A stretch of 64,000 nt of DNA from Thermoplasmata archaeon UBA61 (lineage in GTDB: Archaea > Thermoplasmatota > Thermoplasmata > Lutacidiplasmatales > UBA184), in the NCBI GenBank assembly GCA_002503985.1, contig DASW01000007.1, positions 108,435 through 172,434 on the forward strand, written 5' to 3'. The notes below the pieces were generated by a model. It was not told the DNA's origin. It saw only the letters and a program-made list of their open reading frames with translations, and searched no databases. This document shows positions 26,242 to 51,420 of the stretch, in pieces (the first letter of the stretch is position 1; each line of letters begins with the position of its first letter). Position numbers and translations under genes: made by a program.

Positions 26242-26320
26242 CGACGACGCACCTTTCACCCACCGCCGGGGGCTGGCGCGCGAAATAGCAGGCCCCCCAT
26301 CCTCGACCCCGGGTGGTCGC

Positions 26321-28573
26321 GTGACGGAGGTCCGCACCGAAGGGGCGTCCCGCCTCCTTCCAATCGCGGTGGACTCGATCCTCCTCGTGGGACTGCTCGT
26401 CACGACCCTCGGGCATTCGGGAGCCCCCGTATCCTCGGAACTCCTCGCGAACACCCTCTCCCATCCCTCCAACGACGCTTCGGCGGTCGACCTCGCCATC
26501 GACCCGCCATCCTACGAGATGCGCACCGGCTCCAACCTCACCGTCCAGGCCGTCTGGTCGGCCGGAACTCCTCTCTGCCGCGTAACGGCCCTTTGGTACC
26601 GCTGGTCGGTTGACAACGGGAGCGCGACGGGGTTCCTGAACGCCAGCATCGGACCGTCCGCGACGTTCACCGCGGAATCGTTCGGTTCGGGAACGGTGCC
26701 CGTGTCCGTCCGGTCGGGAGCCGTGCTCGACTGCAGCGGGAACGAGACGGTTGTCGGACGGTCGAACCGAACGAGCATCTCGATCGTCGTTCCCCTCTCG
26801 TTGTCGGGGGTCGATGTCGGACCGAACCCCATGGCACCCGGGAACACGGCCGTCCTCGAAGGTACGGTCACCGGAGGTGAACTTCCGTACACCGTGGAGG
26901 TTACCTGGGGCGACGGCGCCCATTCTACGGTCGCCGTTCCTGCATCGGGCCCCTTCTCGGTCGGCCACCCGTTCTCGGCAGGGGAATTTGTCCCCTTCGT
27001 GGTCGCGAACGACGTCGGTGGCAGTTTCGTCAACGTCTCGGTCGCGGAGGCCCTCTCCGTTGGGACCGGCCTCGAGGTGGCCATTACCCCGGCCAGCTAC
27101 GTGGCGGTGGTTGGGGTCCCGGCCGAGTTCACCGGGGTTGCCGAGAGCAAACCGGCCGGGGCGGTGACGCTGTTCGATTGCTCGAACGCTACTGTCGGTC
27201 CGGACCCCACTTCCCCGGCGTCTCCCAACGCGACCCCGTTCTCCTGCACGTTCATCGCACCGGGGACCCAGGAGGTCCTCTTCGGCGCGTACCCTCCCCA
27301 ACCCGGAGGGACATCGGCGAGCATCGTCCTCTACGAGAACGTCGTGACCGCGCCACAACTATCGGCGACGCCCGTCGAATCGGTGGGGGAGGAGGGCAGC
27401 ACCGCGCTCGTCCAGGTCCACCTCTCCGGTGGTGCCCTACCGATCTCACTAACGTGGAATCTTTCGGGAAACCGGTCGGGGGGCGCCGAGACCGTCGGTT
27501 CTGACGGAAGTGGGGTCCTGAGGGTCCCGCTCGGGGTCGCGGGGGAGTACACGCTCGGGGTCCGGGCGAGCGACGCCCTGGGAGACATGGGAACGAGCGT
27601 GACGGCGACCGTCTGGGTCGACCCCCCGCTCGATGCCAACGTGACCGGCGCCCGTTCTCTCGTTTCCTACGGCGCGGTCGCAGAGGTCGCCGGCGAGGTG
27701 CTCTCTGGCTGTCCGCCGTTCTCCTGGTGGGTCGTCCCTGACCTCGCACCCGCGAACGGGTCGCCCGGGAACGGGACCCTCCCGGACGTCGGAGCGTTCT
27801 CCTGGAACGGGTCGTACGACCAAGAAGGGAACCTTTCGCTTACCGCGGGAGTAGCCGATGGGTGCGGGGCTACCTGGCGGACGGGGCTCGAGGTCCCGCT
27901 CATCCCTATCCTGTCGGCCGAGGTCGCCGTCGCCTCGGGGCCGACCTCGCCCAACGAAACGCTCGCGGTCAACCTGTCGGTTCAGGGCGGACAGTCGCCG
28001 TTCCAACTGTACGTGAACGCGAGCGACAACGAATCCTGGAACCGAACGCTGCCGTCGGACGGGACGTACCGTTGGCTGTTTCCCGCACACGCGAACGGCT
28101 CACTGGAGGTACTGGTTTCGGTGACAGACCGTCTGGGCAAAGACCTCGAGACCCACCTTACGGTCGCCCTGATTGCCCCAGCGGAGCCGACCGTTCCTCC
28201 GCCTCCCCCTTCGACGCTGCCCGGACCATTCGGTAATTCGACCACCACGGCCCCGATGGACCCGACCTGGCTGCTGCTGGCTCTCATTCCGGCGGGTGGC
28301 ATCGCGACGGTCGTGTTCCTACGGGGGCGTCGAGCTCGAAAGACACGCGGCGAAACTCCCGGACCAGACCCCGTAGAGACACTCAAGCGCATTATCGAGC
28401 CGGCCGAAGGCGCGGAGCGATTCACTGTCGAGCTATTGGCAGAGGAAGCGGGGATTCCGCTCGCCGTCGTTCGCTCGACCATCGACCGACTGGTCTCCGA
28501 GGGCGCGATCCGCTCGGAGAGCGGAGCCGACGGGGAGGAGGTGCTTTCGTGGTCATCCGAAGCTGGTCGGTAA
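26321..28573 (+). CDS. large secreted PKD/Ig-like repeat protein with C-terminal TM helix and cytoplasmic wHTH-like tail
   Basis: N-terminal hydrophobic segment. Repeated ~90-aa beta-rich modules with N-x-S/T sequons. TM helix WLLLALIPAGGIATVVFL, then RGRRARK and an HTH-like tail. Confidence 0.7.
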   Translation: MTEVRTEGASRLLPIAVDSILLVGLLVTTLGHSGAPVSSELLANTLSHPSNDASAVDLAIDPPSYEMRTGSNLTVQAVWSAGTPLCRVTALWYRWSVDNGSATGFLNASIGPSATFTAESFGSGTVPVSVRSGAVLDCSGNETVVGRSNRTSISIVVPLSLSGVDVGPNPMAPGNTAVLEGTVTGGELPYTVEVTWGDGAHSTVAVPASGPFSVGHPFSAGEFVPFVVANDVGGSFVNVSVAEALSVGTGLEVAITPASYVAVVGVPAEFTGVAESKPAGAVTLFDCSNATVGPDPTSPASPNATPFSCTFIAPGTQEVLFGAYPPQPGGTSASIVLYENVVTAPQLSATPVESVGEEGSTALVQVHLSGGALPISLTWNLSGNRSGGAETVGSDGSGVLRVPLGVAGEYTLGVRASDALGDMGTSVTATVWVDPPLDANVTGARSLVSYGAVAEVAGEVLSGCPPFSWWVVPDLAPANGSPGNGTLPDVGAFSWNGSYDQEGNLSLTAGVADGCGATWRTGLEVPLIPILSAEVAVASGPTSPNETLAVNLSVQGGQSPFQLYVNASDNESWNRTLPSDGTYRWLFPAHANGSLEVLVSVTDRLGKDLETHLTVALIAPAEPTVPPPPPSTLPGPFGNSTTTAPMDPTWLLLALIPAGGIATVVFLRGRRARKTRGETPGPDPVETLKRIIEPAEGAERFTVELLAEEAGIPLAVVRSTIDRLVSEGAIRSESGADGEEVLSWSSEAGR

Positions 28574-28956
28574 CTCATCTAGGAACGGGCGCCTCCCGAA
28601 GGACTCGGACGATTGCATTCCTTCTCATCGCCCTGGCGACCGTACCCGTACCGGCAGGCCATTCCTCCCCACCTCCCGTACTCGGTCTCCGGACCTTCGG
28701 AACAGCCCCTTCGACCCCCGTGAGCAACTTCTCAGCTTCGATCAATCGTCTGGTCGACTTGGTGGCTCTCGCGGGGAGCGGGATCCTATCGCTCGTCTGG
28801 GCTCGCGTCGCATTAAGCTGGTTCTCCAATGACATTACCAAGAAGATCCAAGCGAAGGACCGCGCCCGGGACGCCTTGATTGGAACCTTGTTGTTCATGG
28901 CGGCGGTCACCGGACTCCTCTACGGGCTCGCCCACTGGGTTCTCACGGGCAGTTAG
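28549..28956 (+). CDS. small membrane protein (signal peptide + 2 TM; pilin/VirB2-like architecture)
   Basis: RRTRTIAFLLIALATVPVPAG looks like a signal sequence; a second TM lies near the C-terminus. Overlaps the upstream gene's end. Confidence 0.5.
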   Translation: MVIRSWSVTHLGTGASRRTRTIAFLLIALATVPVPAGHSSPPPVLGLRTFGTAPSTPVSNFSASINRLVDLVALAGSGILSLVWARVALSWFSNDITKKIQAKDRARDALIGTLLFMAAVTGLLYGLAHWVLTGS

Positions 28957-28966
28957 GAGGGACAGG

Positions 28967-30100
28967 GTGCCGATCCCCTCCGTGGACCTGGGCGACCTTG
29001 TCCGGACCCTTCTGTTCCTGCTCTTCGCCGGACTCACGGCCATCATCACGGCGGTCATCGGGCCGACGTACGACAACCTCCTCGTTCCCGAGCTCCAGCC
29101 CAGTGCCCTCTTCCCTCCCCTCCTGGGCTCGGGAAGTGGCGGCGTGAACTACCTATCCACGGGGGCGCGGTTCTCAGGGTACGTCCTCACAAACGTGGTC
29201 GACCCGGCGGTCACGCTGGTCGCGCTCGGCGTCGCTGTTCTCTACCTGTCCCGGTCGGTCGTCTCGCGGTGGGCAGACGCACTGGATGGGCTCCTCCCCC
29301 GGCTCATCATCGGCGTCGTCGGAGCGAACTTCACGGTGCCGATCGCCGGCGCAATCATCGGCGTTGCGGGAGGTCTCTACCCCATCATCTCCGGCTGGGA
29401 TGGTGGTGCCTGGCAGCACTGGGTGAACTTGGCCGGTTGGGGACAGGTCCCGTTCTCCTGGGACAATGGAGCGCTCGCATTCGTGCTTTCCCTGGTCGAG
29501 TTCGCCGCAGTCTTCGTCCTGGTCCTCGCGGTTGGGATACGGGATGCCGTTCTGGCCGTCCTGCTCGTGCTGTTACCGATATTCACGCTATTGTGGCCCC
29601 TTCACCCCCTCTCCCCCCTCGCCCGAAGAGGGTGGCTGCTGTTTGGCGAGCTCGCGTTCCTACCTTGCGTTCTCGTCGTTCCTCTCGAACTCGCTGTCGG
29701 GAGCCCGAATCCCGTCATGCTGGTTGCCTATCTCGCCGTGGCCGTTGCCTCCCCGTTCTTTCTCTCGCTGGCCGGCACCTCCCTCGTTTCCTTCGGATTC
29801 GGTGGTGCATCGGGGGTTGTCCAATCGAACGCGCAGCGCGGTCTCCAGGTCGCACCGTCTGCCGCTGCCTCCTCGTTCGCGCCGGCGGCCAACGGAATAC
29901 GAACCAGCAGTCCCGCGGGGGGAGCGTTCGCCGGAGTTACCCGAGTCGCCGGATCGGCGGCAGCTCCGGCGGCGGCCCCGCTCGTGGTCGGTGAGCTGAT
30001 CGGTCACGGCGCGTGGCAACTGTTGCGACACGTCGGACCATCCCACGGAAAGAACGGCCCCTCGGCCCAGCCGCCGATGCTCAAGGGAGGGGCGAAATGA
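28967..30100 (+). CDS. polytopic membrane protein (VirB6/TrbL-like architecture)
   Basis: GTG at 28967 preceded by AGGAGGG. At least 7 predicted TM helices. Ala/Ser-rich C-terminal tail. Confidence 0.6.
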   Translation: MPIPSVDLGDLVRTLLFLLFAGLTAIITAVIGPTYDNLLVPELQPSALFPPLLGSGSGGVNYLSTGARFSGYVLTNVVDPAVTLVALGVAVLYLSRSVVSRWADALDGLLPRLIIGVVGANFTVPIAGAIIGVAGGLYPIISGWDGGAWQHWVNLAGWGQVPFSWDNGALAFVLSLVEFAAVFVLVLAVGIRDAVLAVLLVLLPIFTLLWPLHPLSPLARRGWLLFGELAFLPCVLVVPLELAVGSPNPVMLVAYLAVAVASPFFLSLAGTSLVSFGFGGASGVVQSNAQRGLQVAPSAAASSFAPAANGIRTSSPAGGAFAGVTRVAGSAAAPAAAPLVVGELIGHGAWQLLRHVGPSHGKNGPSAQPPMLKGGAK

Positions 30101-30101
30101 G

Positions 30102-30884
30102 ATGGGCGAGCGCGAGGGCGGTCCCCTCATCATCGGGCTTCCCGAACGATTGGACCGCCGAATGCGACTCGGTCCGTTCCCGTCTTCGCGCGACGCGCTC
30201 AAGTTCCTCACGTACGCCGCGACGGGGGCGTTGTTGTCCCCCTTCGCGAGCCCCCTCGTATGGCTCCCGGTGGTGCTGGCGGGGTTTGTCATCTCGGCCT
30301 GGCGCCCGGACGGCCGTGCCTTTGACGAAAGGATGCTCACGTTCGTCACTTGGAAGGTGCGTACGGCGGGCCCGAGGAGTGCCGTGAAAAGCGCCGGGTC
30401 CCGGCCCCTCGTCCGCCAGGGGCTACTCCAGCTCGAGTCCCATCGCTACGTGGCCGTCGTTCGCACGGGCGGCATGCCCATGGCGTACCTGCCACCCGAC
30501 GAGCTCGCCCGGCGCTTTGAACTCTATCGTGAACTCCTACGCTCGACGGACACCAGCTTCTCGTTCCTCGTCACAACAACTCCGATTCGCTCCCAAGCCG
30601 TTCGACCGGGAATCCCCTCGGGAGGCGGTCAGCAGGCCCAGGCGCGCTCGGGGTACTCCGAACTCGTGACCCTGCTTTGCCGGCGCCGGTTCCTCCGGCG
30701 AGTGTACTTCGTCCTCGGCACATTCGAGGTCGACACGGATGCCATCGGGCGTCTGGAGGGGAGGGTCGCAAACCTCGTCGAGCGACTCGGCTCCCTCGGG
30801 CTCCGACCGGTTCGGCTTCGAGACCGATCCCTGGCCGAGGCTGCACACCGGTTCGGCTGGCCCACGGAGGGGCTAGGGGCATGA
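30102..30884 (+). CDS. hypothetical protein with N-terminal TM hairpin (possible split VirB3/VirB4 N-domain)
   Basis: ATG 1 nt after the upstream stop. TM helices LKFLTYAATGALL...VVLAGFVISAW, then a soluble domain. Confidence 0.5.
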   Translation: MGEREGGPLIIGLPERLDRRMRLGPFPSSRDALKFLTYAATGALLSPFASPLVWLPVVLAGFVISAWRPDGRAFDERMLTFVTWKVRTAGPRSAVKSAGSRPLVRQGLLQLESHRYVAVVRTGGMPMAYLPPDELARRFELYRELLRSTDTSFSFLVTTTPIRSQAVRPGIPSGGGQQAQARSGYSELVTLLCRRRFLRRVYFVLGTFEVDTDAIGRLEGRVANLVERLGSLGLRPVRLRDRSLAEAAHRFGWPTEGLGA

Positions 30885-31255
30885 CCGGCGGAACAGGTGC
30901 CGGCCCCGTATTCGAATTCGAAGCGTTCGGCGCCGCCGTTGGATTGGCCGTCGTCTGCGGGGGGTTGTCGATAGTGTTCCCGCTCCTCATCGCGCCGACG
31001 GCCACGCTCGCCGCTCTCGCGTTGGCGGGATGGGTCTCGCGGGCCCGACGACGGGGTTCGCTCACCCGAAAGGGTCCGGGCACTGGGCCGGCGATCGCGC
31101 TCAGCGTTCTGGGGGCCGCTGCGATCTTGTTCCTCATTGCTCCCCCATCCCTCGCCGCCTTTCGTGGCCTCCTCCTTGCGGGGGGTCTCGTCCCGCTCTT
31201 CGCGACCGAGCGAACTTCGTCTCCGCTTCGCTCCCCGGTGTTCTCCCGTTCATGA
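30881..31255 (+). CDS. small membrane protein (3 TM)
   Basis: ATGA overlap at both ends. Hydrophobic throughout. Confidence 0.5.
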   Translation: MTGGTGAGPVFEFEAFGAAVGLAVVCGGLSIVFPLLIAPTATLAALALAGWVSRARRRGSLTRKGPGTGPAIALSVLGAAAILFLIAPPSLAAFRGLLLAGGLVPLFATERTSSPLRSPVFSRS

Positions 31256-32946
31256 CCCGATCCCTCCCTTCGAACGCGCCCGCCGAAGCGCCGACCTTTT
31301 GGCGGGTCGGCCGAAGCTACCGCGCACCGCTCCTGATTCGAAGTTTCCCCCCGGAAGTTCCCTTCGGGTTCCTTAGCCGCATTCTTCCGACCAATGAGAC
31401 GCTCGAGCTCTCGGTAGAGGCCCACCAGATCCCGTCTTCGAACGCGCTCGAGCTCCTGCATGGGGCGAGGGCCGTCGCCGAGGCGGAGCTCGCCACCGGT
31501 GGCAACGGAGGGCAGACGGCCGAGCTCGAGGTCGAACGTGCGAGTGCCGAGGAGCTGGGCCGCGCGGTCGCTCGGCGGACTCAGGAGCTCTGGAAGGTCG
31601 GAATACGCTTCGTGGTCCTAGCTCCGACCCGGCCGCACGTCGAGGCGAGGAGGATGCGCCTATCCGAGCGGCTCTCCGCCATCGGGTTTCGGTCACGTGT
31701 TCCTCGGTACGAGGTCCGCGAGGCGCTCCTCCCGCCGGACCTGTCCGCGTCCGAGCCACGGCCCTCGGGTTACTGGCACACCTTGCCGACCGATGGGCTC
31801 GCCTCGCTCTTCCCGTTCGGAGACGAGACGCTCTTGGAGCCGGGAGGGGTCCTCCTGGGTCTCGCGCTTTCCGACGCGAGCCCGGTATTCGTTGACCGGT
31901 GGTCCCACGCGAGCTACTCCTGGGGTATCTTTGGTACGACGGGGTCGGGCAAGTCGTTCGCGGCGGCGCTGACTCTGCTGAGGACTCGGTGGCTACGACC
32001 CGACACGTCCATCGCCATATTGGATCCTCTAGGGGAGTACTCGACCTTGGTCAAGGCTCTCGGAGGCTCGGTCATCCGTGTCGCGGACGGGGTTGGGGGG
32101 AGACTGAACCCGCTCGACCCGGTGACTACCCGGGGCGACCGACGGGAGAAGGCCGCCCGGGTCGGAACGATGCTTCGGGCCCTCTTCCCGAGCCTTCGAG
32201 ACGAGGAGGCGGCCGAGCTGGACGCGGCCGTGACCCAACTCTACGAGCGAGGACCAGACGTGCCGACCTTGCGAGACCTTCGGGACCGAGTGGTCGAGCG
32301 GGGCGGAGCGGGAACCCGCCTCGCGACCCTGCTTGAGGTGTTCCGGTCGGGTTCGCTGCGGGCGTTGGATGGACCGACGACCGCTCGCCCAACCGAAATG
32401 GTCGTATCGGTCGACTTCCAAGGAGTGCCCGATGACCAACTGCCGTTCCACCTCACGTACGTCCTCGATTGGGCGTACGGGCGGATGGCCGGGCTCACGG
32501 GCGGCAAGCTGCTCCTCATCGACGAGGCGCACCTTCTCGCGCGCCACGCGATGACCGAAGAGTTCCTGGACCGGGTCGTGCGTCACGTGCGACACTTCGA
32601 GGCAGGGCTACTGGTCCTTTCTCAAAGTCCGGAAGATTTTCTCGTCCGTCCGGCCGGAAGGTCTCTCCTCAGGAACTTGTACGCGACCGCGTTCCTACGC
32701 CTCCCGGAGGTGTCGGCCGAAGCGCGGACGTTCTTTGAACTCACGGACGCGGAGGGCGATTGGCTGCCGCGGGCGCGTCTCCCGAAGGAGACCGGGTACT
32801 CCGAATCGCTCTGGAGAGTGGGGGAATTACACCTGCCGCTCGCGATCGTAGCGTCGACCCCCGAGTACGAGTTCCTCGAAGCCAGCCTGGGTCGACCCAG
32901 GACGACTCCGGACGCCCCCGATGCCGCTCCAAAGGGAGGTTTATAG
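31252..32946 (+). CDS. VirB4/TrbE/CagE-like secretion/conjugation ATPase
   Basis: Walker A GIFGTTGSGKS and Walker B KLLLIDEAHLL. ~564 aa. Start overlaps the upstream stop (ATGA). Confidence 0.8.
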   Translation: MTRSLPSNAPAEAPTFWRVGRSYRAPLLIRSFPPEVPFGFLSRILPTNETLELSVEAHQIPSSNALELLHGARAVAEAELATGGNGGQTAELEVERASAEELGRAVARRTQELWKVGIRFVVLAPTRPHVEARRMRLSERLSAIGFRSRVPRYEVREALLPPDLSASEPRPSGYWHTLPTDGLASLFPFGDETLLEPGGVLLGLALSDASPVFVDRWSHASYSWGIFGTTGSGKSFAAALTLLRTRWLRPDTSIAILDPLGEYSTLVKALGGSVIRVADGVGGRLNPLDPVTTRGDRREKAARVGTMLRALFPSLRDEEAAELDAAVTQLYERGPDVPTLRDLRDRVVERGGAGTRLATLLEVFRSGSLRALDGPTTARPTEMVVSVDFQGVPDDQLPFHLTYVLDWAYGRMAGLTGGKLLLIDEAHLLARHAMTEEFLDRVVRHVRHFEAGLLVLSQSPEDFLVRPAGRSLLRNLYATAFLRLPEVSAEARTFFELTDAEGDWLPRARLPKETGYSESLWRVGELHLPLAIVASTPEYEFLEASLGRPRTTPDAPDAAPKGGL

Positions 32947-33379
32947 GGGCCCGCGCGCCGAACGAGGAACGTGGGCGCGGACGCGACGGTCGAAGGCCCG
33001 CCGCGCCGCCGGACGAGCTGGAGCCTGAAGACCATCGTCGAGGACGTTGCGGGTCGACCTATTGGGGAGCTCCAAGACCCCGGGCGACCGGTGCACCCGT
33101 ACCTGAAGGGAAAGGTCGTGGAGGTTCCTTCGGAACTGTCCACCTCCTCGAGGCCCCCCAGCGAATGGTACGACCCGGTCGACCGACTCTATCCCCCCTT
33201 GGTCGGCCCGACCGGGCGAGAGTTCCACGGACCGGACCACGAGAACCATGCCGACACGATTGACCGACACCGACCCCTCCCCGGTCACCTCCCGGGGCCT
33301 ACGCATCGCCCGGAGCGGCTCTACCTGCACTACCTATTGCTCCACATGGACCGGCTGAGCGCCTCGGCGCTCCAGTACC

Positions 33380-34258
33380 TCAAGCTCGCCGTGGACGAGG
33401 AGATCGCACACCGCGCCCAACCCGCGCCTTCATCCCCTTCGGGCCCCGCGCCCGAGCGGAAAGCGTGAACCCGCGCGCCAGCGCACTCGCCTCGAGGGCA
33501 CCGTAGGCGCCTCGGTCCCATTCCACGCCGATCGCGTCACGACCCCAGCGGCTCGCCGCCCAGAGCGTGGTGCCGGTCCCGGCGAACGGGTCGAGCACCG
33601 TGTCGCCCTCGACCGAGAACATCCGCACCAGCCGTTCGGCGAGCTCGGGCGGGAACGCGGCGCTCCTCCCCCGGGGCGAATCCTGGCGAGCGCCCCGGAT
33701 ATCGGTCCAGACCTGGCTGAACCAGCGGTCTCGCTCTTCGCGCGAGAACCGGCTGGCGAGCCGAGCGGCGTCGTGGGTCGGGAAACGCCGGAGCTTTCCC
33801 TTGCGGAAGAGGAGAACGTACTCGCAGTCGAGGGTCACGTAGGCGTTCGGTGGCAAGAACCCCGAGCCGAGGAACGCGTTGGGGCGGTTGGTAGGCTTCT
33901 TCCAGAGGATGTACGGGAGCGGAACCAAGCCGAGGCGAGTCGCCGACACGAACGTCTCGGCCGGGTTCGGCCAGAGGCGAAACTCCCCGTCCGCCGAGCG
34001 GAGCGCATCGCCGATGTTGACCGCGAGGATGCCGCCGGGGACGAGAACGCGTTGGCATTCGGCCCAGGCGTCGGCGAGCACCCGGAGCATCCCTGGGTAG
34101 TCGGTCGCTCCCAGGGCACGGAACAGTCCGTCCCACTGGGGGATCATGGGGTACGGAGGCGACGTGACGACCAGATGGACCGTTCCGCTCGCGATGCCGT
34201 TCAGCTTGCGCGCGTCGCCATGGATGAGCCGAACGGACCCCAGGGGTGGGCGCCGCAC
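33380..34258 (-). CDS. DNA methyltransferase (N6-adenine/N4-cytosine, beta-class; SPPY then DPFAGTGTT)
   Basis: Motif IV TSPPY and motif I VLDPFAGTGTT. Start is uncertain: GTG at 34258 is used here; the first ATG at 34489 would overlap the next gene by 180 nt. Confidence 0.7.
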   Translation of the reverse strand: MRRPPLGSVRLIHGDARKLNGIASGTVHLVVTSPPYPMIPQWDGLFRALGATDYPGMLRVLADAWAECQRVLVPGGILAVNIGDALRSADGEFRLWPNPAETFVSATRLGLVPLPYILWKKPTNRPNAFLGSGFLPPNAYVTLDCEYVLLFRKGKLRRFPTHDAARLASRFSREERDRWFSQVWTDIRGARQDSPRGRSAAFPPELAERLVRMFSVEGDTVLDPFAGTGTTLWAASRWGRDAIGVEWDRGAYGALEASALARGFTLSARARGPKGMKARVGRGVRSPRPRRA

Positions 34259-34309
34259 GCCGGGCCGAAGCCCTGGCACGGTTAATATCGCCCGCCCTCT
34301 CGGTAGGAC

Positions 34310-41489: not shown

Positions 41490-41864
41490 GTGCCCTACAA
41501 GGATCCTGCTAAGCGACGTGCGTACAACCTGGCCTATCGGCGAGAGTACTATCGGAGTCACAAGGTCGAATACCTCGCCAAGAACCGGGTTCGGAAGAGG
41601 GCGGCCCGACAATTCCTCTCAGGTGTGAAGCGACGCAATCCTTGCGCCCGATGCGGAGAATCCGACTTGCGATGCCTCGACTTTCATCATCGAGGTGGTC
41701 ATGAGAAACTCGCAGGGTTGTCTATCATGGCAACGGACGGGGCTGCGATTGCCTCCCTGGAAAGGGAACTGCGCAAATGTATCGTCCTTTGCAAGAACTG
41801 CCACGCGAAGGAACACTTCAAAGGGACCGGCGATTCAGGGAAACGGCCGGGGACGCTCCCGTAG
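41490..41864 (+). CDS. free-standing HNH endonuclease
   Basis: Motifs CARCG...DFHH...CKNCH. GTG start. The 3' end overlaps the tRNA 5' end by ~10 nt. Confidence 0.75.
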   Translation: MPYKDPAKRRAYNLAYRREYYRSHKVEYLAKNRVRKRAARQFLSGVKRRNPCARCGESDLRCLDFHHRGGHEKLAGLSIMATDGAAIASLERELRKCIVLCKNCHAKEHFKGTGDSGKRPGTLP

Positions 41865-41954
41865 TCTAGTCCGGTCAAGGATAGAGGGCCTTCGAGGCGC
41901 CCCATGGGGCGTCGAGGAAACCCTCCAACGCGGGTTCGAATCCCGCCGGGAGCA
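41855..41954 (+). tRNA. intron-containing tRNA, probably tRNA-Glu(UUC); ~25-nt intron at about 41895-41919
   Basis: 7-bp acceptor stem GCTCCCG/CGGGAGC. D-loop AGTCCGGTCAA. T-arm GCGGG-TTCGAAT-CCCGC. Discriminator A. Anticodon stem GAGGG/CCCTC is interrupted by a 25-nt insert that folds as a relaxed bulge-helix-bulge. The spliced loop would be CCTTCGA. Confidence 0.6.
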
Positions 41955-41997
41955 TCCCAAACATGGTTTAATACCGCCGTACTGACATGCCGAAACC

Positions 41998-43302
41998 GTG
42001 CCTCGGTCTCCGATGGGCGGTATCGAGATCCGCGAGTTCCTTTCCCTTCCGAGCCTCAGGGCTTGGTATGAGAACGTAGCTCGAGGGTCACGGATCACGG
42101 CCGACGTCTACTCTCGTTCCCTACGCCTATTCTGTCACCTGACAGAGAAGGACCCATCCTCGCTGCTTCGACTTGCGGAGCCACAGCTCCATTCAATCCT
42201 GCTCGAGTTCGTGACCGCCGAGGAGAAACGGAAGCAGGCGGGCAGCTCGACGGCGACCCACCTCAAGGCGGTGAAGTCGTGGCTCGCGTTCAACGGTATC
42301 CGCATCACCCGACCCGTCAAGGTCCGTCGCGTGCAGGAGACGCCGACACTCGCGGAAGAGCGTACCCCCACCCAAGACGAGCTGCGCCGAGTGTTGCTCG
42401 CAGCGACCGCTCGAAACCGAGTATCCTGCGCGATGATGGCCTTCTCGGGCGTTCGTCCAGAAGTCCTCGGGAGTTACCTCGGCGATGACGGTCTCCGCGT
42501 CAAGGACCTCCCGGAGTTGCGGATCCGCGGCTCCGAGGTGCGTTTTGAGCGAACCCCGGCGACGGTGGTGGTCCGCTCCACTCTCTCCAAAGCCGGACAC
42601 CGATACTTCACGTTCCTGGGGGAAGAGGGGTGCGGGTACGTCGCCGAGTACCTCCGCTCGAGAGTCAAGGAGGGAGAGACCCTCGGTCCCGAGTCCGACA
42701 TCGTTCACGCTGAGGCCGGCCACAGCACCCTGCGTGGAGGAAACACGTTCATCCGGACAACCAACGTCGGGGATGGAATCCGTCTCGCCCTACGGAAGGG
42801 GGGTTTCCCGTGGCGTCCGTACGTGCTTCGTGCCTACTTCGATACCCAGTTGCTGCTTGCCGAGTCGAAGGGCAAGGTCGCCCACGACTACCGAGTGTTC
42901 TGGATGGGGCACAAGGGATCGATGGAGGCCCGGTACACGACCAACAAAGGACGCCTCCCGCAGAATCTCGTCGACGACATGCGCGATGCATACTGTCGGT
43001 GCGAACCGTTCCTGTCGACAGTCCCCTCACGAAACGAGCAAGATGCCCAAGCAAAGATGGCGAAGACCATGTTGATGGGCCTTGGCTACACGGAGGCAGA
43101 GCTCGCCGCGATTGACTTCGAGAATCTGGACGTCACGTTATTCCAAGACCTCGTCACGAAGAAGATGGTCTCCTCAGGTGCGGGTGCAAAGCAGCAGCTC
43201 GTAGACGCGGGCGATCTTCCCCGCTACCTCGAACAGGGCTGGACTGTCGTCACCGCGGTCAATGGACACCAAGTCGTGCTGAATCCACCGGCGTCACGAT
43301 AA
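41998..43302 (+). CDS. tyrosine recombinase/integrase (phage integrase family)
   Basis: C-terminal catalytic region with R...HxxR (HDYR)...Y. 434 aa. Lies immediately 3' of the tRNA. Confidence 0.85.
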   Translation: MPRSPMGGIEIREFLSLPSLRAWYENVARGSRITADVYSRSLRLFCHLTEKDPSSLLRLAEPQLHSILLEFVTAEEKRKQAGSSTATHLKAVKSWLAFNGIRITRPVKVRRVQETPTLAEERTPTQDELRRVLLAATARNRVSCAMMAFSGVRPEVLGSYLGDDGLRVKDLPELRIRGSEVRFERTPATVVVRSTLSKAGHRYFTFLGEEGCGYVAEYLRSRVKEGETLGPESDIVHAEAGHSTLRGGNTFIRTTNVGDGIRLALRKGGFPWRPYVLRAYFDTQLLLAESKGKVAHDYRVFWMGHKGSMEARYTTNKGRLPQNLVDDMRDAYCRCEPFLSTVPSRNEQDAQAKMAKTMLMGLGYTEAELAAIDFENLDVTLFQDLVTKKMVSSGAGAKQQLVDAGDLPRYLEQGWTVVTAVNGHQVVLNPPASR

Positions 43303-43648
43303 GCCGGAACCATCCGACCACCTTCGCCGCATACTCCTGACGGGGGATCTCGTCGGGTTCGCCAAGGACCAGGATCCGCAGAGGGTGGGAAGGGTCGAGA
43401 CTCTGGGCCATCGCCTTCATCTCGCGCAGGGAGACCAAGAGGTCCGCACCCCCGAAGCGCACGAGGGATGACGACCGGGAGGCAGTAGTGAGGGCTCCCG
43501 CCCTGGAAATCGGTGTTCCGCGGGCCATCCCGGTCGCCACCGAAGTCGTCGAGCGAGTCCTGCCATAAGAATCGAGTTTCCCCGATGAAGCGTGGAAGCT
43601 GCTCGGCGTCGAATCTCCGTTCAGATTCCGCCGGGTGAAGTAGCCCAA
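43259..43648 (-). CDS. hypothetical protein (weak)
   Basis: ORF only. Overlaps the integrase 3' end. Confidence 0.2.
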   Translation of the reverse strand: MGYFTRRNLNGDSTPSSFHASSGKLDSYGRTRSTTSVATGMARGTPISRAGALTTASRSSSLVRFGGADLLVSLREMKAMAQSLDPSHPLRILVLGEPDEIPRQEYAAKVVGWFRLIVTPVDSARLGVH

Positions 43649-43675
43649 TAACCCCGAATCGGCGCTCGCCTATGC

Positions 43676-46600
43676 ATGGACAGCGGACCCGTCCATCGCG
43701 AACTGTTGCTGCCGACGCCGACCAAGGACCCGCCCGAAATCCCGCCGCTCGTCTGGGCCTCGTCGACCCCGTTCTGGCTGGAGATCCACCGAGAGACGAC
43801 CGGACGAGTGCGATACTCGCTCGGTTCCAGCTCCGTATCGGACCTCGAGGCGATGCTCGCCTGCCTCGAGAGCACGCGCCCCCGCTTGACGGGAGGCGCG
43901 CCGATCGAATGCTTCGCCGCGACGCTCGTTCCGGAAGGGGTCTATGCTCGGGCCGTACCCGTCCAGAAGCACCACCACCTGCCCATCCAGGTCCAACCCA
44001 AGGTGGACAGCGCGAGCTTCCTTCTGCGGACCCTCGGTTCGCGGACGCTGCGCGACCACGACGTACTCCTGCAGCTCCTATTTCGAAGGGTCCGAGGCTG
44101 GGAATCGAGTTTCTTCTCGCCCCTCTACGATACGGTCGCCCAGCGCCAGGCCCACCAGCTGAGGGGCCAGATGGAGGTTCGCCAGGGCGAAGCCGCCTAT
44201 CACGTCGAGCTGAGGACGAACATCAAGGGACCACAGCCGGAGGAGGCGCTGACCGCGCTCGGTGCCTGGCTGGGGCAGTGGACGACCACTGGGGGAGTGC
44301 CCTGGAGGCGGTGGAAGGTCATCCGCCCCAGGGCGGAGTGGGGATTCCACGCGGCTCTGGCCAGCCACGACCTCCGCCGATACTCGAGCAGGAAGGCCCG
44401 TCGGAACGTTTCCGGCACGGAGCTCGCGCATCTGCTCAGCATACCTTGGGCCACTCACCACCCGGAATGCTCCTACGCCGGGGCGCCTCGTAGCCAGCCG
44501 GCGCCAGAACTCGTCGTGCGTCCGTCCTCTTCCCCCAGCTCCCCCGCCGACGCGCGGCTCATGGTTGGGGTCAGCGGCTCTCGCCGGGTCACACTTCCGC
44601 GGGAATGGAACCACGTTGCCATACTTGGCAGGACCCAGTCGGGTAAGTCGACTCTCGCCCTCAATCTCGTCCTCCAGACGCTGAGAAAACACCCCAACTC
44701 CACCGTCGTCGTGATCGAGCCCACCGGGACGCTGGTCGAGGGGATCGTGTCGCGACTTCCCCGCGAAATCGCCTTGGAGACCGTAGAGATCGACCCCGCC
44801 CACGCCACCTTCCAGCAGGGTGACGCGACCATGGTCTCGGTCCCCCTCTCGTTGCTCCTGCCGCCGGAGCGGGCGGACGAATTGCCTTCGGTCCGCGATC
44901 GCTGGTCGGAGGCGCTCGCGGGCGACCTCCTCGCCGCGATCCGGAGCGCCTGGGGGGAGGAGAGCATCGGGGGCCGGGCCGAATTCGTCCTGCGCGCACT
45001 GGTGCAGGGCCTCGCACTCACGCCCGGCTCGAACCTGGTCGACGCCTACCACATCCTCACTTCGAAAACCGCGCTCCAGCGGTTTGTCAAGTCCGCGCCG
45101 CCCGGGCCGCTGAGAGACTTCCTCGAACACCACCTCCCTCGCCTCGACTACACGTTCACGATGTCGTCCCTCGACAAGGTCGGTAAGGTTGCAACCAATT
45201 CCCTCCTCCGGATCGCGCTCTGCCAGCGGAACCACGCGGTCTCGTTCGACCGGCTGCTCGGGCATCGCCTGCTCCTCCTGAACCTCTCCAAGGCCGCCCT
45301 GGGAGCGGACGGGGCGAACTTCCTGGGGGCGATCTACCTAACCCAGCTCTGGGCCGCCGTTCAGCGGAGCGGACGGCCGGATCGGCCGGTCTACCTGGTC
45401 CTCGACGAGGTCCACAACTACGCCGTCCCGGCGCTCGCCGACATGCTGAGCGAGGGGGCGAAGTTCGGGCTCCACGTCGTGGCCATCACCCAGTACCTCC
45501 ACCGGGTGCCGCTGAGGGTCCGGGCGGCCCTCCTGGGGAACGTCGACGCTTGGTTGCTCTTCTCCCTCGGGACGGAGGACATGGACGACGCGTGGAAGAT
45601 CGTCAACGGGGAGACCCACGGGTGGCTACCTCAGGACCTCGTGGACGGGCTCCGGCCTTACGAAGTCGCGATGGCGGTGTCAGGAGACCTTCTGAAGCTG
45701 GGAACGCGCCCCAGCCCTCCTCCAGACGCGCAGGCGAACGACCTGAGGGACGTCGTGACGACGAGCTCTCGAAGGTATGCCCAGCCCGAGGACTCGGAGG
45801 CGTCGCCCTGGCTTGTGGGTCAGGAAATGGTTGAAGTCATACTCAGGGGGCTATCGATTCAGCCCAAGACACGCGAGGAGCTAGCCGCCGAGACTGCGCT
45901 GGCAGCAAATCGACTGGACGGAGCGCTCAGCGTCTCCATCACCTCTGGAGATATTGAACAAGAGCCGACTCACGGGAAGTTCCGCCTGACTTCCCGCGGA
46001 GACTTCCACCTCCGGGCGCTCGAGTCGCGGAGGAACGAGGGGTCGGACCACTCTGACCTGCTAGCGGACGGCGTAGCCCCTCTTCAGGGTCTCCGGCCAC
46101 GGGTCACGGCGCAGGGTGGAGTGCTCCCTCAGCCGGACGGCGTATTCGAATGGAACGGGCAGACCTACAATCTGGAGGTGGAGACGAGCAACTTGGTCAA
46201 GCACCCGGAACAGGTAGTCCGCAATCTTCGGAAGGCTCTGGCGATGGAACGACCGTGCCTCTTTGTAGTTCCGGACCGGGAAAGCGCCGGACAGCTCTTC
46301 CAAATCCTGGCCCGAGCCGCCCCCGAGGTTGCGCTTTGGAGGGAGTTCGGGCTGATGTGGAAGGAAGGGCCGGGAAAGTTCCTTCCCTACATCTCGGGCT
46401 CCGGGCAGCCATGGAGCTTCTTGATCGATGGAAGGGGGTCCGCGGGGGGTGTGGTTCCACCGAGCACAATCTTTCCCCAGGCCATCAGTTCGGCGGATTC
46501 GGACCTTTCCCGAGTGCACCTTCGTGTCAAACAACTCTTGGCCGAAGGCAAGTCAGAGGCGACCTTGCAAGACTTCGCCGATCTCTTCGGTCCTGGCCAG

Positions 46601-46819
46601 GGCGGTGTCCTCGAACGGCAGCGCCTTGGGATGGCCCTCATCGCCCTTGGTGTGAAGAGCCGAAGGGTCCGCACGGCGGACGGCCAGGAGCGCGTCTACG
46701 ACATCGGTCAACTGGCAGATTCGGTTGGCAGCTCACAAGACGGGGCTACGAGGCCCGCGGACCACAGTCGCAACGAAGGCGACAACGGGAACGATTCCGG
46801 GGTCGGACCGAACAACTGA
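43676..46819 (+). CDS. large HerA/FtsK-superfamily (DUF87-type) ATPase, candidate conjugative coupling/DNA-translocating ATPase
   Basis: Walker A GRTQSGKST and Walker B YLVLDEVHNY. 1047 aa with long N- and C-terminal extensions. Confidence 0.75.
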   Translation: MDSGPVHRELLLPTPTKDPPEIPPLVWASSTPFWLEIHRETTGRVRYSLGSSSVSDLEAMLACLESTRPRLTGGAPIECFAATLVPEGVYARAVPVQKHHHLPIQVQPKVDSASFLLRTLGSRTLRDHDVLLQLLFRRVRGWESSFFSPLYDTVAQRQAHQLRGQMEVRQGEAAYHVELRTNIKGPQPEEALTALGAWLGQWTTTGGVPWRRWKVIRPRAEWGFHAALASHDLRRYSSRKARRNVSGTELAHLLSIPWATHHPECSYAGAPRSQPAPELVVRPSSSPSSPADARLMVGVSGSRRVTLPREWNHVAILGRTQSGKSTLALNLVLQTLRKHPNSTVVVIEPTGTLVEGIVSRLPREIALETVEIDPAHATFQQGDATMVSVPLSLLLPPERADELPSVRDRWSEALAGDLLAAIRSAWGEESIGGRAEFVLRALVQGLALTPGSNLVDAYHILTSKTALQRFVKSAPPGPLRDFLEHHLPRLDYTFTMSSLDKVGKVATNSLLRIALCQRNHAVSFDRLLGHRLLLLNLSKAALGADGANFLGAIYLTQLWAAVQRSGRPDRPVYLVLDEVHNYAVPALADMLSEGAKFGLHVVAITQYLHRVPLRVRAALLGNVDAWLLFSLGTEDMDDAWKIVNGETHGWLPQDLVDGLRPYEVAMAVSGDLLKLGTRPSPPPDAQANDLRDVVTTSSRRYAQPEDSEASPWLVGQEMVEVILRGLSIQPKTREELAAETALAANRLDGALSVSITSGDIEQEPTHGKFRLTSRGDFHLRALESRRNEGSDHSDLLADGVAPLQGLRPRVTAQGGVLPQPDGVFEWNGQTYNLEVETSNLVKHPEQVVRNLRKALAMERPCLFVVPDRESAGQLFQILARAAPEVALWREFGLMWKEGPGKFLPYISGSGQPWSFLIDGRGSAGGVVPPSTIFPQAISSADSDLSRVHLRVKQLLAEGKSEATLQDFADLFGPGQGGVLERQRLGMALIALGVKSRRVRTADGQERVYDIGQLADSVGSSQDGATRPADHSRNEGDNGNDSGVGPNN

Positions 46820-47072
46820 GCGCCCGGTACGCGCCGACCTTGTGCCGACGGTGCCGACGTGCCAGTGTATGAGGAAAGAGGGTACGTTCTATCGGCACAG
46901 CAGGGTCGACACAATCATCGGCACTGAATTCGGTCAGTGGTCTCGAATGGCTCAGGACTCGCCGACGGTTGTCGTCATGCGAGCGAATCGCCCGTGATCA
47001 CCTGCCTCCGCCACGCGGGAGGGGCCCACGAACGAAGTGAGTGGGAGGGACCCGCGCCAAGCCGCCGGCTCG

Positions 47073-47336
47073 TTAGGGGAAAAACGCTCGCATATCCTTT
47101 CGCGAGACCTCAAGGATCCTCGCACCTGTCACGGCCAGAACAATCCCGACCGCCAGGATCGCGAAGAACGCTCCCACGTTGAACCCGGACGCATCGGGAA
47201 GGCATCCCGGGTCCGCGACGCACGCGTTGAAAACCGCGAGGGCTTCCACGCCCGCCGCGATGAAGATCAGACCGACCGCGAGAGTGACCTCTCCCGCGCC
47301 ACGGAACGCGAAGGCGGCTCGAACGTTCCCCGCCAT
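47073..47336 (-). CDS. small membrane protein (2 TM)
   Basis: Hydrophobic segments. Lies directly downstream of the DUF932-like gene. Confidence 0.35.
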   Translation of the reverse strand: MAGNVRAAFAFRGAGEVTLAVGLIFIAAGVEALAVFNACVADPGCLPDASGFNVGAFFAILAVGIVLAVTGARILEVSRKDMRAFFP

Positions 47337-47342
47337 TGTCCC

Positions 47343-48218
47343 TCACGCGGGGGCGGTTGCCGCATCCGAAATGAGCAACGCGCTCGCTGCGGCCCGTTCG
47401 AACCCCCGGGACCGCTCCGGGCTCACGCGCGGGCCAACCTCATGCGTAAGGATCTCGGTCGCAACCTGGTAGGCCGACCAGCGGGTGAGGAGCGCGTTGT
47501 GCGAGGCAGCTGCCTCCGCCCGCGCACCAATCGTGGTTGCGTAGACGCGGGGGAGCCCCGCCGCGATGAGCAAGGGTGTCACGTCCTCCGCGAGGACCTC
47601 ATCGCCCATCGCGTCCGCGTAGACCTGCAGCGCGTCCCGGAAGCGGCCCAGGATCGTGTGAATGGCCTTCTGGAGCATCGCCATCAGGTCCGTCTCCGAG
47701 GAGAGGTGGACCTCACGAAGCTCCACTAGGGAGTGCATTCCCGCATAGAGCTGGTTCGCGCAGGCGATCCGCACCCCCGTTCCCTCGGCCCGGACCGCCC
47801 AACTCCCGTCCAGGCTGTTCATCACTCGGACGCCGGGATAGACGGACTCCCCCGGCGCGAGCTCGTACCGGGTCCCGACCACGAGTCGGACCTCCATCCG
47901 ACGTCCTCCCGCGAAGAGGCGGATCTGCTCGCGGGGGAACACGGGGGCGTTCGCGTCCAGGACGGGGCGTTCCAGGGCCTCCCCGATGGCATGGACAGCT
48001 TCCGCGACCTCGCGGTGCTGCACGAGCTGGTAGCGGTCGCTCACGATCGACACGACCTGGGAGGTGTCCTTACGGCGGACGCCCCGGTAGGCCTCGAGGG
48101 GCTCCCCCTGGGGTCCATGTACGGGGACCAGGTCATAGAGGGGAACCTGGTCGGGAGTGACCACGGTCTCGTACGGTCGGCGCAGGTTCTGGCTTTCGGT
48201 CGGGTTCGAGGCTATCAT
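47343..48218 (-). CDS. DUF932-like phage/plasmid-associated protein
   Basis: Motif VMNSLDGSWA resembles the DUF932 signature NSxDGSxA. Confidence 0.55.
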   Translation of the reverse strand: MIASNPTESQNLRRPYETVVTPDQVPLYDLVPVHGPQGEPLEAYRGVRRKDTSQVVSIVSDRYQLVQHREVAEAVHAIGEALERPVLDANAPVFPREQIRLFAGGRRMEVRLVVGTRYELAPGESVYPGVRVMNSLDGSWAVRAEGTGVRIACANQLYAGMHSLVELREVHLSSETDLMAMLQKAIHTILGRFRDALQVYADAMGDEVLAEDVTPLLIAAGLPRVYATTIGARAEAAASHNALLTRWSAYQVATEILTHEVGPRVSPERSRGFERAAASALLISDAATAPA

Positions 48219-48420
48219 CGTTGTCCTCGGTCACGAGGGACAACGAGGGAGCCTCGCCAGAGGACTAGGTCCCTCGAGACGCGAGGGCACGGCTCGCGAG
48301 GTCAGCAATCTGCGGCACCCGCCTCAGGGTTCAGGGCGTGCTCCGCGTCCTCTATAGAAACAACGGGAACTCCGGACCGGAGCTGTCCTTCCGTGACCCC
48401 AAAGCACGCATAGAACTACG

Positions 48421-48510
48421 CCGCCTTGCGCCCGTCGCGCGCGAGCGTCTCGACCCGGCCCGGGGAGTCGCGACCGCCGCCCGCGCCACCTTCACGCGGG
48501 CGCGGTTAGG
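48421..48510. repeat. ~80-nt GC-rich intergenic repeat, copy 1
   Basis: gcgcccgtcgcgcgcgagcgtctcg...ggcccggggg...gcgacc.ccgcccgc...ccttcacg. Shared with 51421-51500 and partly with 49786-49860. Confidence 0.5.
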
Positions 48511-49375: not shown

Positions 49376-49408
49376 AGGAGCCTGTATAATCGTGCCATCC
49401 AGGAAGGC

Positions 49409-49627
49409 TCACGCGGTCTGGCTCTCTCCTGACTCGTGGTCTGAGTCTTCCGGACCAGAAGCAGGAACACCCTGGCGGAACTGGGTCTCGGTGATGCCAA
49501 AGCTCGCGTAGAATCGCGCCGCCTTCACCCAGTCCCGCCGGAGGACCTCCTCCGCTCCGGGCGTGCCCGAAATCGCCGCCCGGGCCGCCTTGACGCGCCC
49601 GCGCAGGTCGCGCAGCCTCCCCTTCAC
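49409..49627 (-). CDS. conserved small protein, paralog of the C-terminal domain of 58383..59288 (start unresolved)
   Basis: Motif RLRDLRGRVKAARA...ARFYA.FGITE.Q is shared with 58383..59288. Homology continues upstream to ~49790, but an in-frame stop at 49792-49794 and the absence of an in-frame ATG leave the real start unclear. Confidence 0.4.
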   Translation of the reverse strand: MKGRLRDLRGRVKAARAAISGTPGAEEVLRRDWVKAARFYASFGITETQFRQGVPASGPEDSDHESGESQTA

Positions 49628-49785
49628 GGCACGTTCGTCGGCTTCGCGAGAGTCGTCGGGGAGGCCGCTCGTGGTCTCCGAGACGCTGAACTGCCGGGCC
49701 GAAGTCGCAATCTCCTCCGCGTCCTCGTCTTCGTCCGGGCCGCCGAACGCGACCCGCGACTCGAACCGCGTTCGCGTCCGGGTCG

Positions 49786-49860
49786 CGCCGCATCACGCCC
49801 GTCGCTCGCGAGCGTCTCGGCCCGCGCGGGGGGGACCCGCGAGCGAAGCGAGGGGGGAGG
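49786..49860. repeat. ~80-nt intergenic repeat, partial copy
   Basis: cgcccgtcgctcgcgagcgtctcggcccgcgcggggggg matches the 5' half of the repeat consensus. Confidence 0.4.
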
Positions 49861-49889
49861 ACCCGCGCCGTCCGCGTGCCAGCGCGAAT

Positions 49890-51374: not shown

Positions 51375-51420
51375 GATTCTCTGAGGGCGTCACGCCGTAT
51401 ACACTTGGCCGTGAATCGTG

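Follow-up and report, generated by a model that had tools for sequence, protein, structure and literature searches.

A vertically inherited chromosomal operon of Lutacidiplasmatales archaea encodes parts of a type IV secretion system with a divided VirB4 ATPase

This report concerns an operon in a 64,000-nt stretch of contig DASW01000007.1 of Thermoplasmata archaeon UBA61, which is called the window and in which positions are numbered. The genes g1 to g7 (Table 1) all lie on the plus strand and form a real six-to-seven-gene operon that is derived from a type IV secretion system (T4SS). The products g2, g3, g4 and g6 are homologous to T4SS parts, the gene structure is defined, and the locus is vertically inherited and under selection. 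The operon is probably a chromosomal T4SS derivative that moves DNA between cells and is of one functional kind with the crenarchaeal Ced and Ted systems. We infer by analogy how it assembles, that it forms a pilus, that its substrate is DNA and which way transfer runs.

The gene order was confirmed first. A first-pass annotation of the DNA had listed six co-directional open reading frames (ORFs), g1 to g6, and their coordinates and junctions were reproduced here. The first two genes overlap by 25 nt, the GTG start of g3 is preceded by AGGAGGG, g4 starts 1 nt past the stop of g3, and ATGA overlaps join g4 to g5 and g5 to g6. Upstream of g2, g3, g4 and g5 there are GGAGG-like motifs. Independent gene calls from relatives gave the same sizes for g1 to g6, with 754, 135, 377, 260, 124 and 564 aa in locus L001 (1.8-Mb contig) and 764, 134, 376, 260, 125 and 554 aa in L004 (220-kb contig). 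The hydrophobic segments of g1 to g5 also agreed with the earlier description. The earlier list stopped at the ATPase and overlooked a conserved seventh gene, g7. Upstream of the operon, the very GC-rich gap of 79 nt between the fibrillarin gene and g1 (26242..26320, plus strand) contains an A/T-rich box, GAAATAG, about 37 nt before the g1 start. This box is conserved across the upstream regions aligned from 15 genomes and is a possible archaeal TATA element for the operon. Since long spurious ORFs are common in a GC-rich genome (the window has a G+C content of about 67%), selection was checked by the ratio of nonsynonymous to synonymous substitutions (dN/dS). Against seven relatives the values for g1 to g7 were 0.08-0.47, with all but one at 0.08-0.35. 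Every gene is therefore under purifying selection, which shows that g1 to g7 are real genes and not chance ORFs.

The assignment of g6 as a Walker A/B ATPase of the VirB4 family was tested against protein family models. In NCBIfam the VirB4-like model CD1110 ranked first (E=1e-40), followed by the VirB4 of mycoplasma integrative and conjugative elements (ICEs) (1e-26), TIGR00929 (5e-14) and TraC (3e-13), while the CedD model gave E=1e-10 and HerA E=3e-3. The match in the Protein Data Bank (PDB) was the VirB4 C-terminal domain 4AG5 (E=7e-14), and g6 is closer to such domains than to HerA. The 750 plasmid relatives of g6 are all conjugative-type VirB4 genes, with less than 30% identity. Walker A (GTTGSGKS) occupies residues 228-235 (nt 31933-31956) and Walker B (LLLIDE) residues 420-425 (nt 32509-32526). 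The residues G231, G233, K234, D424, E425, R447 and Q458 are invariant in the family, including relatives down to 22% identity. Close relatives are labelled 'VirB4 family type IV secretion system protein' by NCBI. A HerA/FtsK-type ATPase that works with unrelated membrane proteins in DNA repair, cell division or defence would fit the sole above-threshold Pfam match of g6, the generic DUF87/HerA central domain, and the label 'HerA-like' that JGI gives to some relatives. The ranking of VirB4 models over HerA, the N-domain pieces described below, which match PrgI and TraC/CagE-type VirB4 N-domains, and the partners of g6, a VirB6-fold protein and a T4SS pilin, all speak for a T4SS origin instead, and we consider the HerA/FtsK explanation extremely improbable.

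In an exhaustive search, the nearest unsplit relatives of g6 were 770-1050 aa long, and g6 covers their residues from about 300 to 850. Their extra N-termini carry the Pfam domain PrgI and a TraC/CagE-type VirB4 N-domain, followed by the P-loop. PrgI is the VirB3 equivalent of Gram-positive systems. The first-pass annotation had taken g4 for a detached VirB4 N-domain with a transmembrane (TM) hairpin, which would explain the short ATPase, and profile comparisons bore this out. When 54 g4 orthologues were compared by hhalign with the N-termini of 50 unsplit relatives, a match of 98.7% was obtained (E=3e-16, 184 columns), whereas the control profiles of g2, g3, g5 and g7 gave 0.2% or less. A hidden Markov model (HMM) of the N-termini was run on all ORFs of the window and had g4 as its sole match (E=1.4e-21). 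In the other direction, the 856-aa unsplit protein from L077 was matched directly by the g4 HMM (E=1e-10). Pairwise BLASTP did not relate g4 significantly to any of the unsplit VirB4 relatives (best E=0.35), so the relationship is visible by profile methods only. While g4 aligns to the first 300 or so residues of the unsplit relatives, residues 16-200 of g6 align to the CD1110 profile from about position 203 onward. The VirB4-type N-domain is present but divided: as read from these alignments, g4 corresponds to the membrane hairpin (about residues 30-66, nt 30189-30299, with one strong hydrophobic segment within) together with half of the N-domain, the first, and g6 to the second half and the motor.

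A separate N-terminal piece was also found on the Haloprofundus plasmid pMHR1-2, where a 349-aa gene just before VirB4 matched the N-terminal profile at 98.8%. The split is thus not unique to the Thermoplasmata module. Peculiar to this module is the small membrane-protein gene, g5, between the two VirB4 pieces. Its product has about three TM segments by hydrophobicity, as had been noted before, and an ORF of 105-145 aa is present at this position in 64 loci. In distant loci the ORF measures 145 aa (L073), 93 aa (L074) and 138 aa (L076). The g5 gene evolves fast (dN/dS 0.18-0.47), and no homologues were found in Pfam, NCBIfam or profile comparisons.

The second gene encodes a pilin-like protein with a signal peptide and two TM segments. 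Residues 1-56 comprise a signal peptide and a linker of variable sequence. The mature part that follows (residues 57-135, nt 28717-28953) has two helices and is conserved, and these final 79 residues are nearly invariant in the orthologue alignment. A basic loop, KKIQAKDRARD (consensus KKxQAKDRARD), joins the two hydrophobic helices, and the invariant Asn60 lies in an NF(S/T) glycosylation sequon just before them. AlphaFold predicted a helical hairpin of residues 57-96 and 102-133 with a pLDDT of 82-88. Sub-threshold matches to the Pfam family T4SS_pilin (PF18895) were obtained with 21 of the 52 g2 orthologues, the best at 8e-5. The g2 HMM matched a 177-aa protein of L076 (E=2e-23; hhalign 98.6%), which itself clears the T4SS_pilin gathering score with 31.3 bits vs 26.6. 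By its topology, its conservation pattern and this link to an above-threshold protein, g2 belongs to the T4SS_pilin family, and the pilin assignment was upheld. The L076 locus (1836-5588) encodes four proteins with a T4SS-pilin domain, of 177, 339, 326 and 406 aa, and in the 406-aa protein the domain is C-terminal. This suggests a set of major and minor pilins or pilin fusions.

The third gene encodes a polytopic protein with a disordered, Ala/Gly/Pro-rich C-terminal tail. AlphaFold modelled it from 60 sequences as all-helical, with a pLDDT of 60-77 over residues 1-270 and a disordered tail. Precomputed Pfam matches to TrbL_3 exist on about ten g3 orthologues (P0358 at E<=1e-5), and a Pfam search run here on the orthologues gave no match. 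In L077, the g3 HMM matched the TrbL_3 protein encoded ahead of the unsplit VirB4 (E=2.8e-12). A similarity between the pilin and the N-terminus of VirB6 has been reported, and hhalign of g2 against g3, which probed it, was negative (2%). When the profiles of g2 and g3 were searched by sequence against the PDB chains, neither found a match at E<=10. Polytopic, with a VirB6 helical fold and encoded beside VirB4, g3 is a member of the VirB6/TrbL group, as had been proposed, and is a candidate for both the channel and the pilus-assembly platform.

At the head of the operon, g1 encodes a surface protein that has a signal/anchor helix at its N-terminus, followed by Ig/PKD-like repeats. After these come a TM anchor at residues 649-667 (nt 28265-28321) and a cytoplasmic tail of about 70 aa that is winged-helix-like (nt 28358-28555). 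It contains 22 N-X-S/T sequons, and its tail has a weak Pfam match to an Rrf2-like winged helix-turn-helix (wHTH) at residues 696-743. The earlier description as a PKD-repeat protein held in part: PKD matches are clear on the 1792-aa homologue of L073, but g1 of the window gave weak Ig-like matches alone (Big_13, Ig_3) and no clear PKD match. In distant loci, the module is headed by homologues of 1000-1800 aa (HMM E=1e-47 to 1e-149), and the layout of TM anchor and wHTH tail is kept in all of them. Of the seven genes g1 is the fastest evolving, with a dN/dS of about 0.3.

The seventh gene begins 25 nt past g6. In the alignment, its product shows three motifs that are conserved, with variable linkers rich in Pro between them, and looks largely disordered. 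No match to the family was found in Pfam, NCBIfam or profile comparisons, and its dN/dS is 0.14-0.27. The gene follows g6 in nearly all loci, with insertions separating the two in L015 and L022. Because it also stands behind the ATPase in L067 (HMM E=2e-38) and L073 (2e-19), two distant loci whose surroundings differ, it probably, though not certainly, belongs to the module, likely in an accessory or regulatory role. A convergent gene for an orphan N6/N4 DNA methyltransferase overlaps the 3' end of g7 by 89 nt. This gene adjoins the operon in nearly all Lutacidiplasmatales loci with 60-88% identity, and no restriction-enzyme partner was seen. We rejected the methylase as a part of the module, since every other neighbour is just as syntenic and since the module stands without this gene in distant loci (L073, L074).

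The conservation of the locus was then analysed. Hundreds of g6 homologues with 67-92% identity were found, all in metagenome bins named 'Thermoplasmata archaeon'. A scan with one genome per species returned 67 loci, including UBA184 and Candidatus Lutacidiplasma silvani/Lutacidiplasmatales; they come from soils and peat. Synteny was followed by tblastn with the operon genes and the genes around them, tabulated for the species-representative loci. In essentially every locus with enough flanking DNA, the order is DUF885 (minus strand), RidA and fibrillarin, then g1 to g7, then the N6/N4 methylase (minus strand) and HPS-RraA, and truA and pst often come next. All seven reading frames are intact at this same place in about 65 species, on contigs reaching 1.8-2.2 Mb, and ATPase identity, which ranges from 91% down to 51%, follows the divergence of the adjacent core genes. 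The tetranucleotide composition of the operon correlates with that of the window core at 0.97, compared to about 0.91 for a foreign-looking stretch at 50-59 kb. The tetranucleotides of the operon are thus native, and its GC content at third codon positions (GC3) is somewhat lower, with 0.71-0.79 in the operon genes vs 0.87 in neighbouring core genes. Among PLSDB plasmids and phage records no relative with more than 30% identity was found. Neither an integrase nor an att site, relaxase or type IV coupling protein (T4CP) gene flanks the operon, and the locus is invariant across the order. The shared locus, the selection and the native composition show that this is an old, vertically inherited chromosomal locus and not an ICE or a recent plasmid remnant, in line with the earlier view of a chromosomal, domesticated system.

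A decaying and now functionless remnant of an integrated conjugative element or plasmid might be suspected from the lower GC3, from the split of VirB4, and from an integrated element and IS110 copies within 30 kb. The split itself is conserved with both halves under selection, and the seven intact frames at one locus, the low dN/dS values, the native tetranucleotides, the lack of a close plasmid relative and the lack of a flanking integrase or att site all argue against decay, so that a remnant is highly improbable. This explanation and that of a HerA-type ATPase were rejected on conservation, selection and family scores.

A five-gene core, consisting of genes for a pilin-size protein, a VirB6-like protein, the N-terminal piece, a small TM protein and a short ATPase, recurs among housekeeping genes in other Thermoplasmata, in differing chromosomal contexts and in genomes that span 30% to 75% GC. 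In L073 (38% ATPase identity, 67% GC) the 1792-aa PKD protein is followed by genes of 139, 382, 225, 145 and 568 aa and by the g7 homologue. In L074 (28% ATPase identity, 30% GC) the genes encode 115, 352, 251, 93 and 547 aa. The unsplit relative L077 encodes proteins of 185 aa, 424 aa (TrbL_3), 856 aa (VirB3-VirB4) and 1139 aa, the last being a T4CP-like ATPase encoded directly after VirB4 that clears the Pfam thresholds of TraG-D_C and TrwB_AAD_bind. The order pilin, VirB6, VirB3/VirB4 is common to the operon, the unsplit L077 system and plasmid pMHR1-2. The synteny that had been sought for the operon is thus found in the 67 species-level loci and, for the core, in distant Thermoplasmata. 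As a side observation, L074 (10668-13247) encodes a fusion of an MGMT DNA-binding domain with endonuclease V on the same strand, 24 nt past the ATPase, and an Ogg/HhH glycosylase about 2 kb beyond it; this is a single instance of DNA-repair genes beside the module.

The operon had been placed 9 kb from a tRNA/integrase boundary with the core genes pst and truA in between. We found HPS, truA and pstSCAB-phoU between g6 and the tRNA, which lies 8.9 kb past the end of g6; the tRNA is 100 nt long, of intron length, and was found by Rfam and missed by ARAGORN. Directly after it an integrated element begins (Table 1). The relaxase, VirD4 and VirB11 had been said to be missing, which is true of the operon, but the element carries a VirD4-like gene. 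Its 1047-aa product scored 24.4 bits with Pfam TrwB_AAD_bind (cut-off 20.5) and weakly with TraG-D_C and with the TraD/VirD4-like models of NCBIfam. It is 30% identical over its full length to the 1139-aa protein of L077 (E=3e-130). A conserved C-terminal region is shared by the T4CP-like protein of the window and its relatives in L077 and L056, with a winged-helix-like segment and the motifs PDGVFE...NxEVExS...NLRKA...CLFVV. From these motifs, the C-terminal third could be a PD-(D/E)xK nuclease-like domain that stands in for a relaxase. A metagenome scan revealed about 37 related elements with 45-90% identity and the backbone integrase, T4CP, small ORF, (DUF932), 301-aa ORF. Homologues of g2, g3, g4 and g6 were absent from these elements within flanks of up to 9 kb, and an HMM search of the ORFs found no second set of g2 to g6 homologues in the window. 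The integrase of the window and its counterpart at this tRNA in another species (L001) share 98% identity, whereas the adjacent PhoU is 71% identical, which points to a recent transfer between species. In the Lutacidiplasma clade (L054, L056 and L060; about 75% GC), a T4CP-like ORF of 975 aa is convergent to g7, at about 10.2-13.1 kb in locus coordinates, and takes the place of the methylase and HPS genes.

In established T4SS biology, VirB4 extracts VirB2 from the membrane and polymerises it on the VirB6 platform. By analogy, g2 would be inserted into the membrane by Sec, its signal peptide and variable linker would be removed, and it would probably be N-glycosylated at Asn60. The g4 and g6 proteins would reassemble into a membrane-docked hexameric ATPase that extracts the pilin and polymerises it on the g3 platform into a conjugative-type pilus. 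The same platform would double as the translocation channel. Contact with another cell or its S-layer is probably mediated by g1, which would couple it to the cytoplasmic side, and g5 and g7 may be lineage-specific accessory subunits. The most likely substrate would be DNA passing between cells of the same or related species, chromosomal as in Ced and Ted; integrated elements could also be the cargo, contributing an integrase and a VirD4-like ATPase alone and borrowing the apparatus. This working is proposed on the basis of T4SS biology and of Ced and Ted (PMC9905601, PMC11868833). As hints to a DNA substrate we count the DNA exchange by Ced and Ted, the repair genes in L074, the T4CP-like gene of Lutacidiplasma and the elements that have an integrase and a T4CP and no pore.

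Several points weigh against DNA transfer by a T4SS derivative. The organisms are uncultured and the function is read from genes alone. Neither a relaxase nor VirD4, VirB11, VirB8 or a cell-wall hydrolase is encoded in the operon, so the DNA substrate is an analogy. The window g2 itself matches T4SS_pilin at a sub-threshold E=0.14, a pilin fold search with g2 was non-discriminating, and the g3 model is of moderate quality, with an overall pLDDT of 59. The scores of g6 are below the curated cut-offs, with 139.8 bits vs 325 for CD1110 and 51.4 vs 643 for TIGR00929, so it is a divergent VirB4 outside any curated subfamily. The attR site of the element (a repeat of the tRNA 3' end) and its right-hand chromosomal flank were sought and not found, and the element could therefore have pore genes of its own beyond the window. 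Finally, the relaxase-less chromosomal T4SS of Patescibacteria is thought to serve epibiotic growth, not conjugation (PMC12102498).

The last point leads to the explanation that the same T4SS-derived machine has a use other than DNA transfer, either as an adhesive or contact pilus or in the secretion or uptake of proteins or other molecules. The lack of a relaxase and a coupling protein in the operon and the large adhesin-like surface protein at its head would fit such a use, and the Patescibacteria provide a precedent of a chromosomal system, derived from the MPF-FATA type and tied to lifestyle (PMC12102498). However, Ced and Ted, which are the nearest analogues in archaea, transfer DNA and have neither a relaxase nor a T4CP (PMC9905601). 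In the related Thermoplasmata systems with an unsplit VirB4, a T4CP is encoded directly behind it, integrated elements with a T4CP only co-occur with the operon, and no effector or toxin-immunity genes were seen beside the operon in the loci examined. A use apart from DNA is a serious alternative, yet an unlikely one, and DNA transfer between cells is the reading that we prefer.

The element in the window may contribute the coupling ATPase and rely on the chromosomal pore in trans. To our knowledge, a relaxase has never been found in archaeal conjugation. Taken together, these observations can be combined into a tentative and rather doubtful proposal: a 'public' chromosomal mating pore would be kept class-wide in Thermoplasmata, where it would exchange chromosomal DNA and be used in trans by elements with an integrase and a VirD4-like ATPase, whose nuclease-like C-terminal domain could replace the relaxase. 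If this were true, the operon would be the first case of a conjugation system domesticated outside Crenarchaeota, and the elements would be the first mobile elements that depend on a T4SS of the host core.

Table 1. Features of the window, with positions in nt
Feature	Position	Strand	Product or remark
g1	26321..28573	+	glycosylated surface protein, 750 aa
g2	28549..28956	+	VirB2-type (T4SS) prepilin, 135 aa
g3	28967..30100	+	VirB6/TrbL-like polytopic membrane protein, 377 aa, GTG start
g4	30102..30884	+	detached N-terminal piece of a VirB3(PrgI)-VirB4 fusion, 260 aa
g5	30881..31255	+	small polytopic membrane protein, 124 aa, ATG start
g6	31252..32946	+	VirB4-family ATPase, 564 aa, ATG start
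g7	32971..33468	+	conserved soluble protein, 165 aa
N6/N4 DNA methyltransferase	33380-34279	-	orphan; longest ORF to 34489
tRNA	41855-41954		100 nt
Integrated element	41855-59288		begins right after the tRNA
Integrase	41998-43302		tyrosine-recombinase-like, on element
Coupling-ATPase candidate	43676..46819	+	VirD4/TraG-like, 1047 aa, outside the operon
87-aa ORF			on element
DUF932	47343-48218	-	on element
NHL-repeat protein			on element
2121-aa ORF	52069-58434	-	without family match, in a stretch of 60% GC
301-aa ORF	58383-59288	-	conserved, on element
IS110-family transposase genes	60183-62559	-	two in tandem, 364 and 362 aa, just beyond the element

The module extends the logic of Ced and Ted to mesophilic soil and peat Thermoplasmatota, at one locus across a whole order and with a core that reaches distant low-GC relatives. 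It offers a candidate mechanism of gene exchange for a large, abundant and uncultured archaeal group. The natural cut of VirB4 into a membrane-anchor and a motor piece is useful for studying how VirB3 and the VirB4 N-domain work. In addition, a testable link is suggested between the pore encoded by the host and mobile elements with a coupling ATPase alone, and the archaeal 'missing relaxase' problem might be approached via the T4CP-like protein. The interest for archaeal gene transfer is real; a new principle it is not.

In reviews and primary papers, the archaeal systems of T4SS type are those of Sulfolobus plasmids, pT33-3, Ced and Ted only (PMC12857230, PMC9905601, PMC12102498), and the discoverers of the hyperthermophilic Ced and Ted systems knew of no such domestication in other organisms (PMC9905601). 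Secretion, pili and VirB genes go unmentioned in the paper on Lutacidiplasmatales. For Cuniculiplasma/Thermoplasmatales a VirB4 cluster has been described (arCOG04034 VirB4, arCOG05340, arCOG05369), flanked by membrane, multipass and Thermoplasmatales-specific membrane proteins; the paper places a TraG/VirD4 ATPase elsewhere in the genome and mentions the cluster in one sentence as 'type IV secretion components' (PMC5155288). Going by this published description, the cluster is very likely the same kind of module as the operon.

In sequence, the module is closest to the MPF-FATA systems of Firmicutes plasmids and ICEs and of haloarchaeal megaplasmids, judging by the components compared (PrgI/VirB3, VirB4 of the CD1110/TrsE/PrgJ type, PrgH/VirB6-like and T4CP). 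The best matches of g6 are found there, a PrgI-type VirB3 hairpin is fused or adjacent to VirB4, and the order is pilin-size gene, VirB6-like, VirB3/VirB4. In contrast, those systems lie on mobile elements with a T4CP, a relaxase (in bacteria), a VirB8-like protein and a hydrolase, whereas the operon is fixed in the chromosome without them and identity is at most 29%. The T4SS of Patescibacteria (CPR) is likewise derived from MPF-FATA, near-universal and chromosomal in an uncultured lineage, mostly lacks a relaxase and has PF18895 pilins; it differs in being bacterial and linked to epibiotic life, with an unsplit VirB4 and other accessory genes (PMC12102498).

In architecture, the operon is most like Ced and Ted, the only characterised archaeal chromosomal sets of VirB2, VirB4 and VirB6, both of which exchange DNA (PMC9905601). 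Ted of Thermoproteales consists of the TedC pilin, the VirB6-like TedA and the VirB4-like TedB, and Ced of Sulfolobales and Desulfurococcales of CedA1, CedA, CedB and CedD (PMC9905601, PMC11868833). Like them, the operon is a chromosomal, vertically inherited minimal T4SS with a VirB2-like pilin, a VirB6-like and a VirB4-like protein and without a relaxase or VirD4. Its pilin has a predicted cleavable signal peptide, as TedC has, and its VirB4 N-domain is shared by two polypeptides, as in CedB and CedD (PMC9905601, PMC11868833). The earlier comparison with Ced and Ted therefore stands for architecture and logic, but not for the pilin and the VirB6-like protein, which have no sequence match to solved structures. 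Orthology was not supported, with g6 at 40.8 bits vs the CedD cut-off of 600. The PDB presumably includes the structures of CedA1 and of the TedC pilin. Going by the PDB sequence search with g2 and g3, the module appears non-orthologous to Ced and Ted in pilin or channel and Ced/Ted-like in its working. DNA import has been demonstrated for Ced, whereas the operon is known from its genes. Ced uses two paralogous ATPases, CedB and CedD, where the operon has one ATPase gene cut into an N-terminal piece and a motor with g5 in between. Compared to both systems, it belongs to another phylum, Thermoplasmatota, adds g1 with its wHTH tail, g5 and g7, and holds all its genes in one tight operon.

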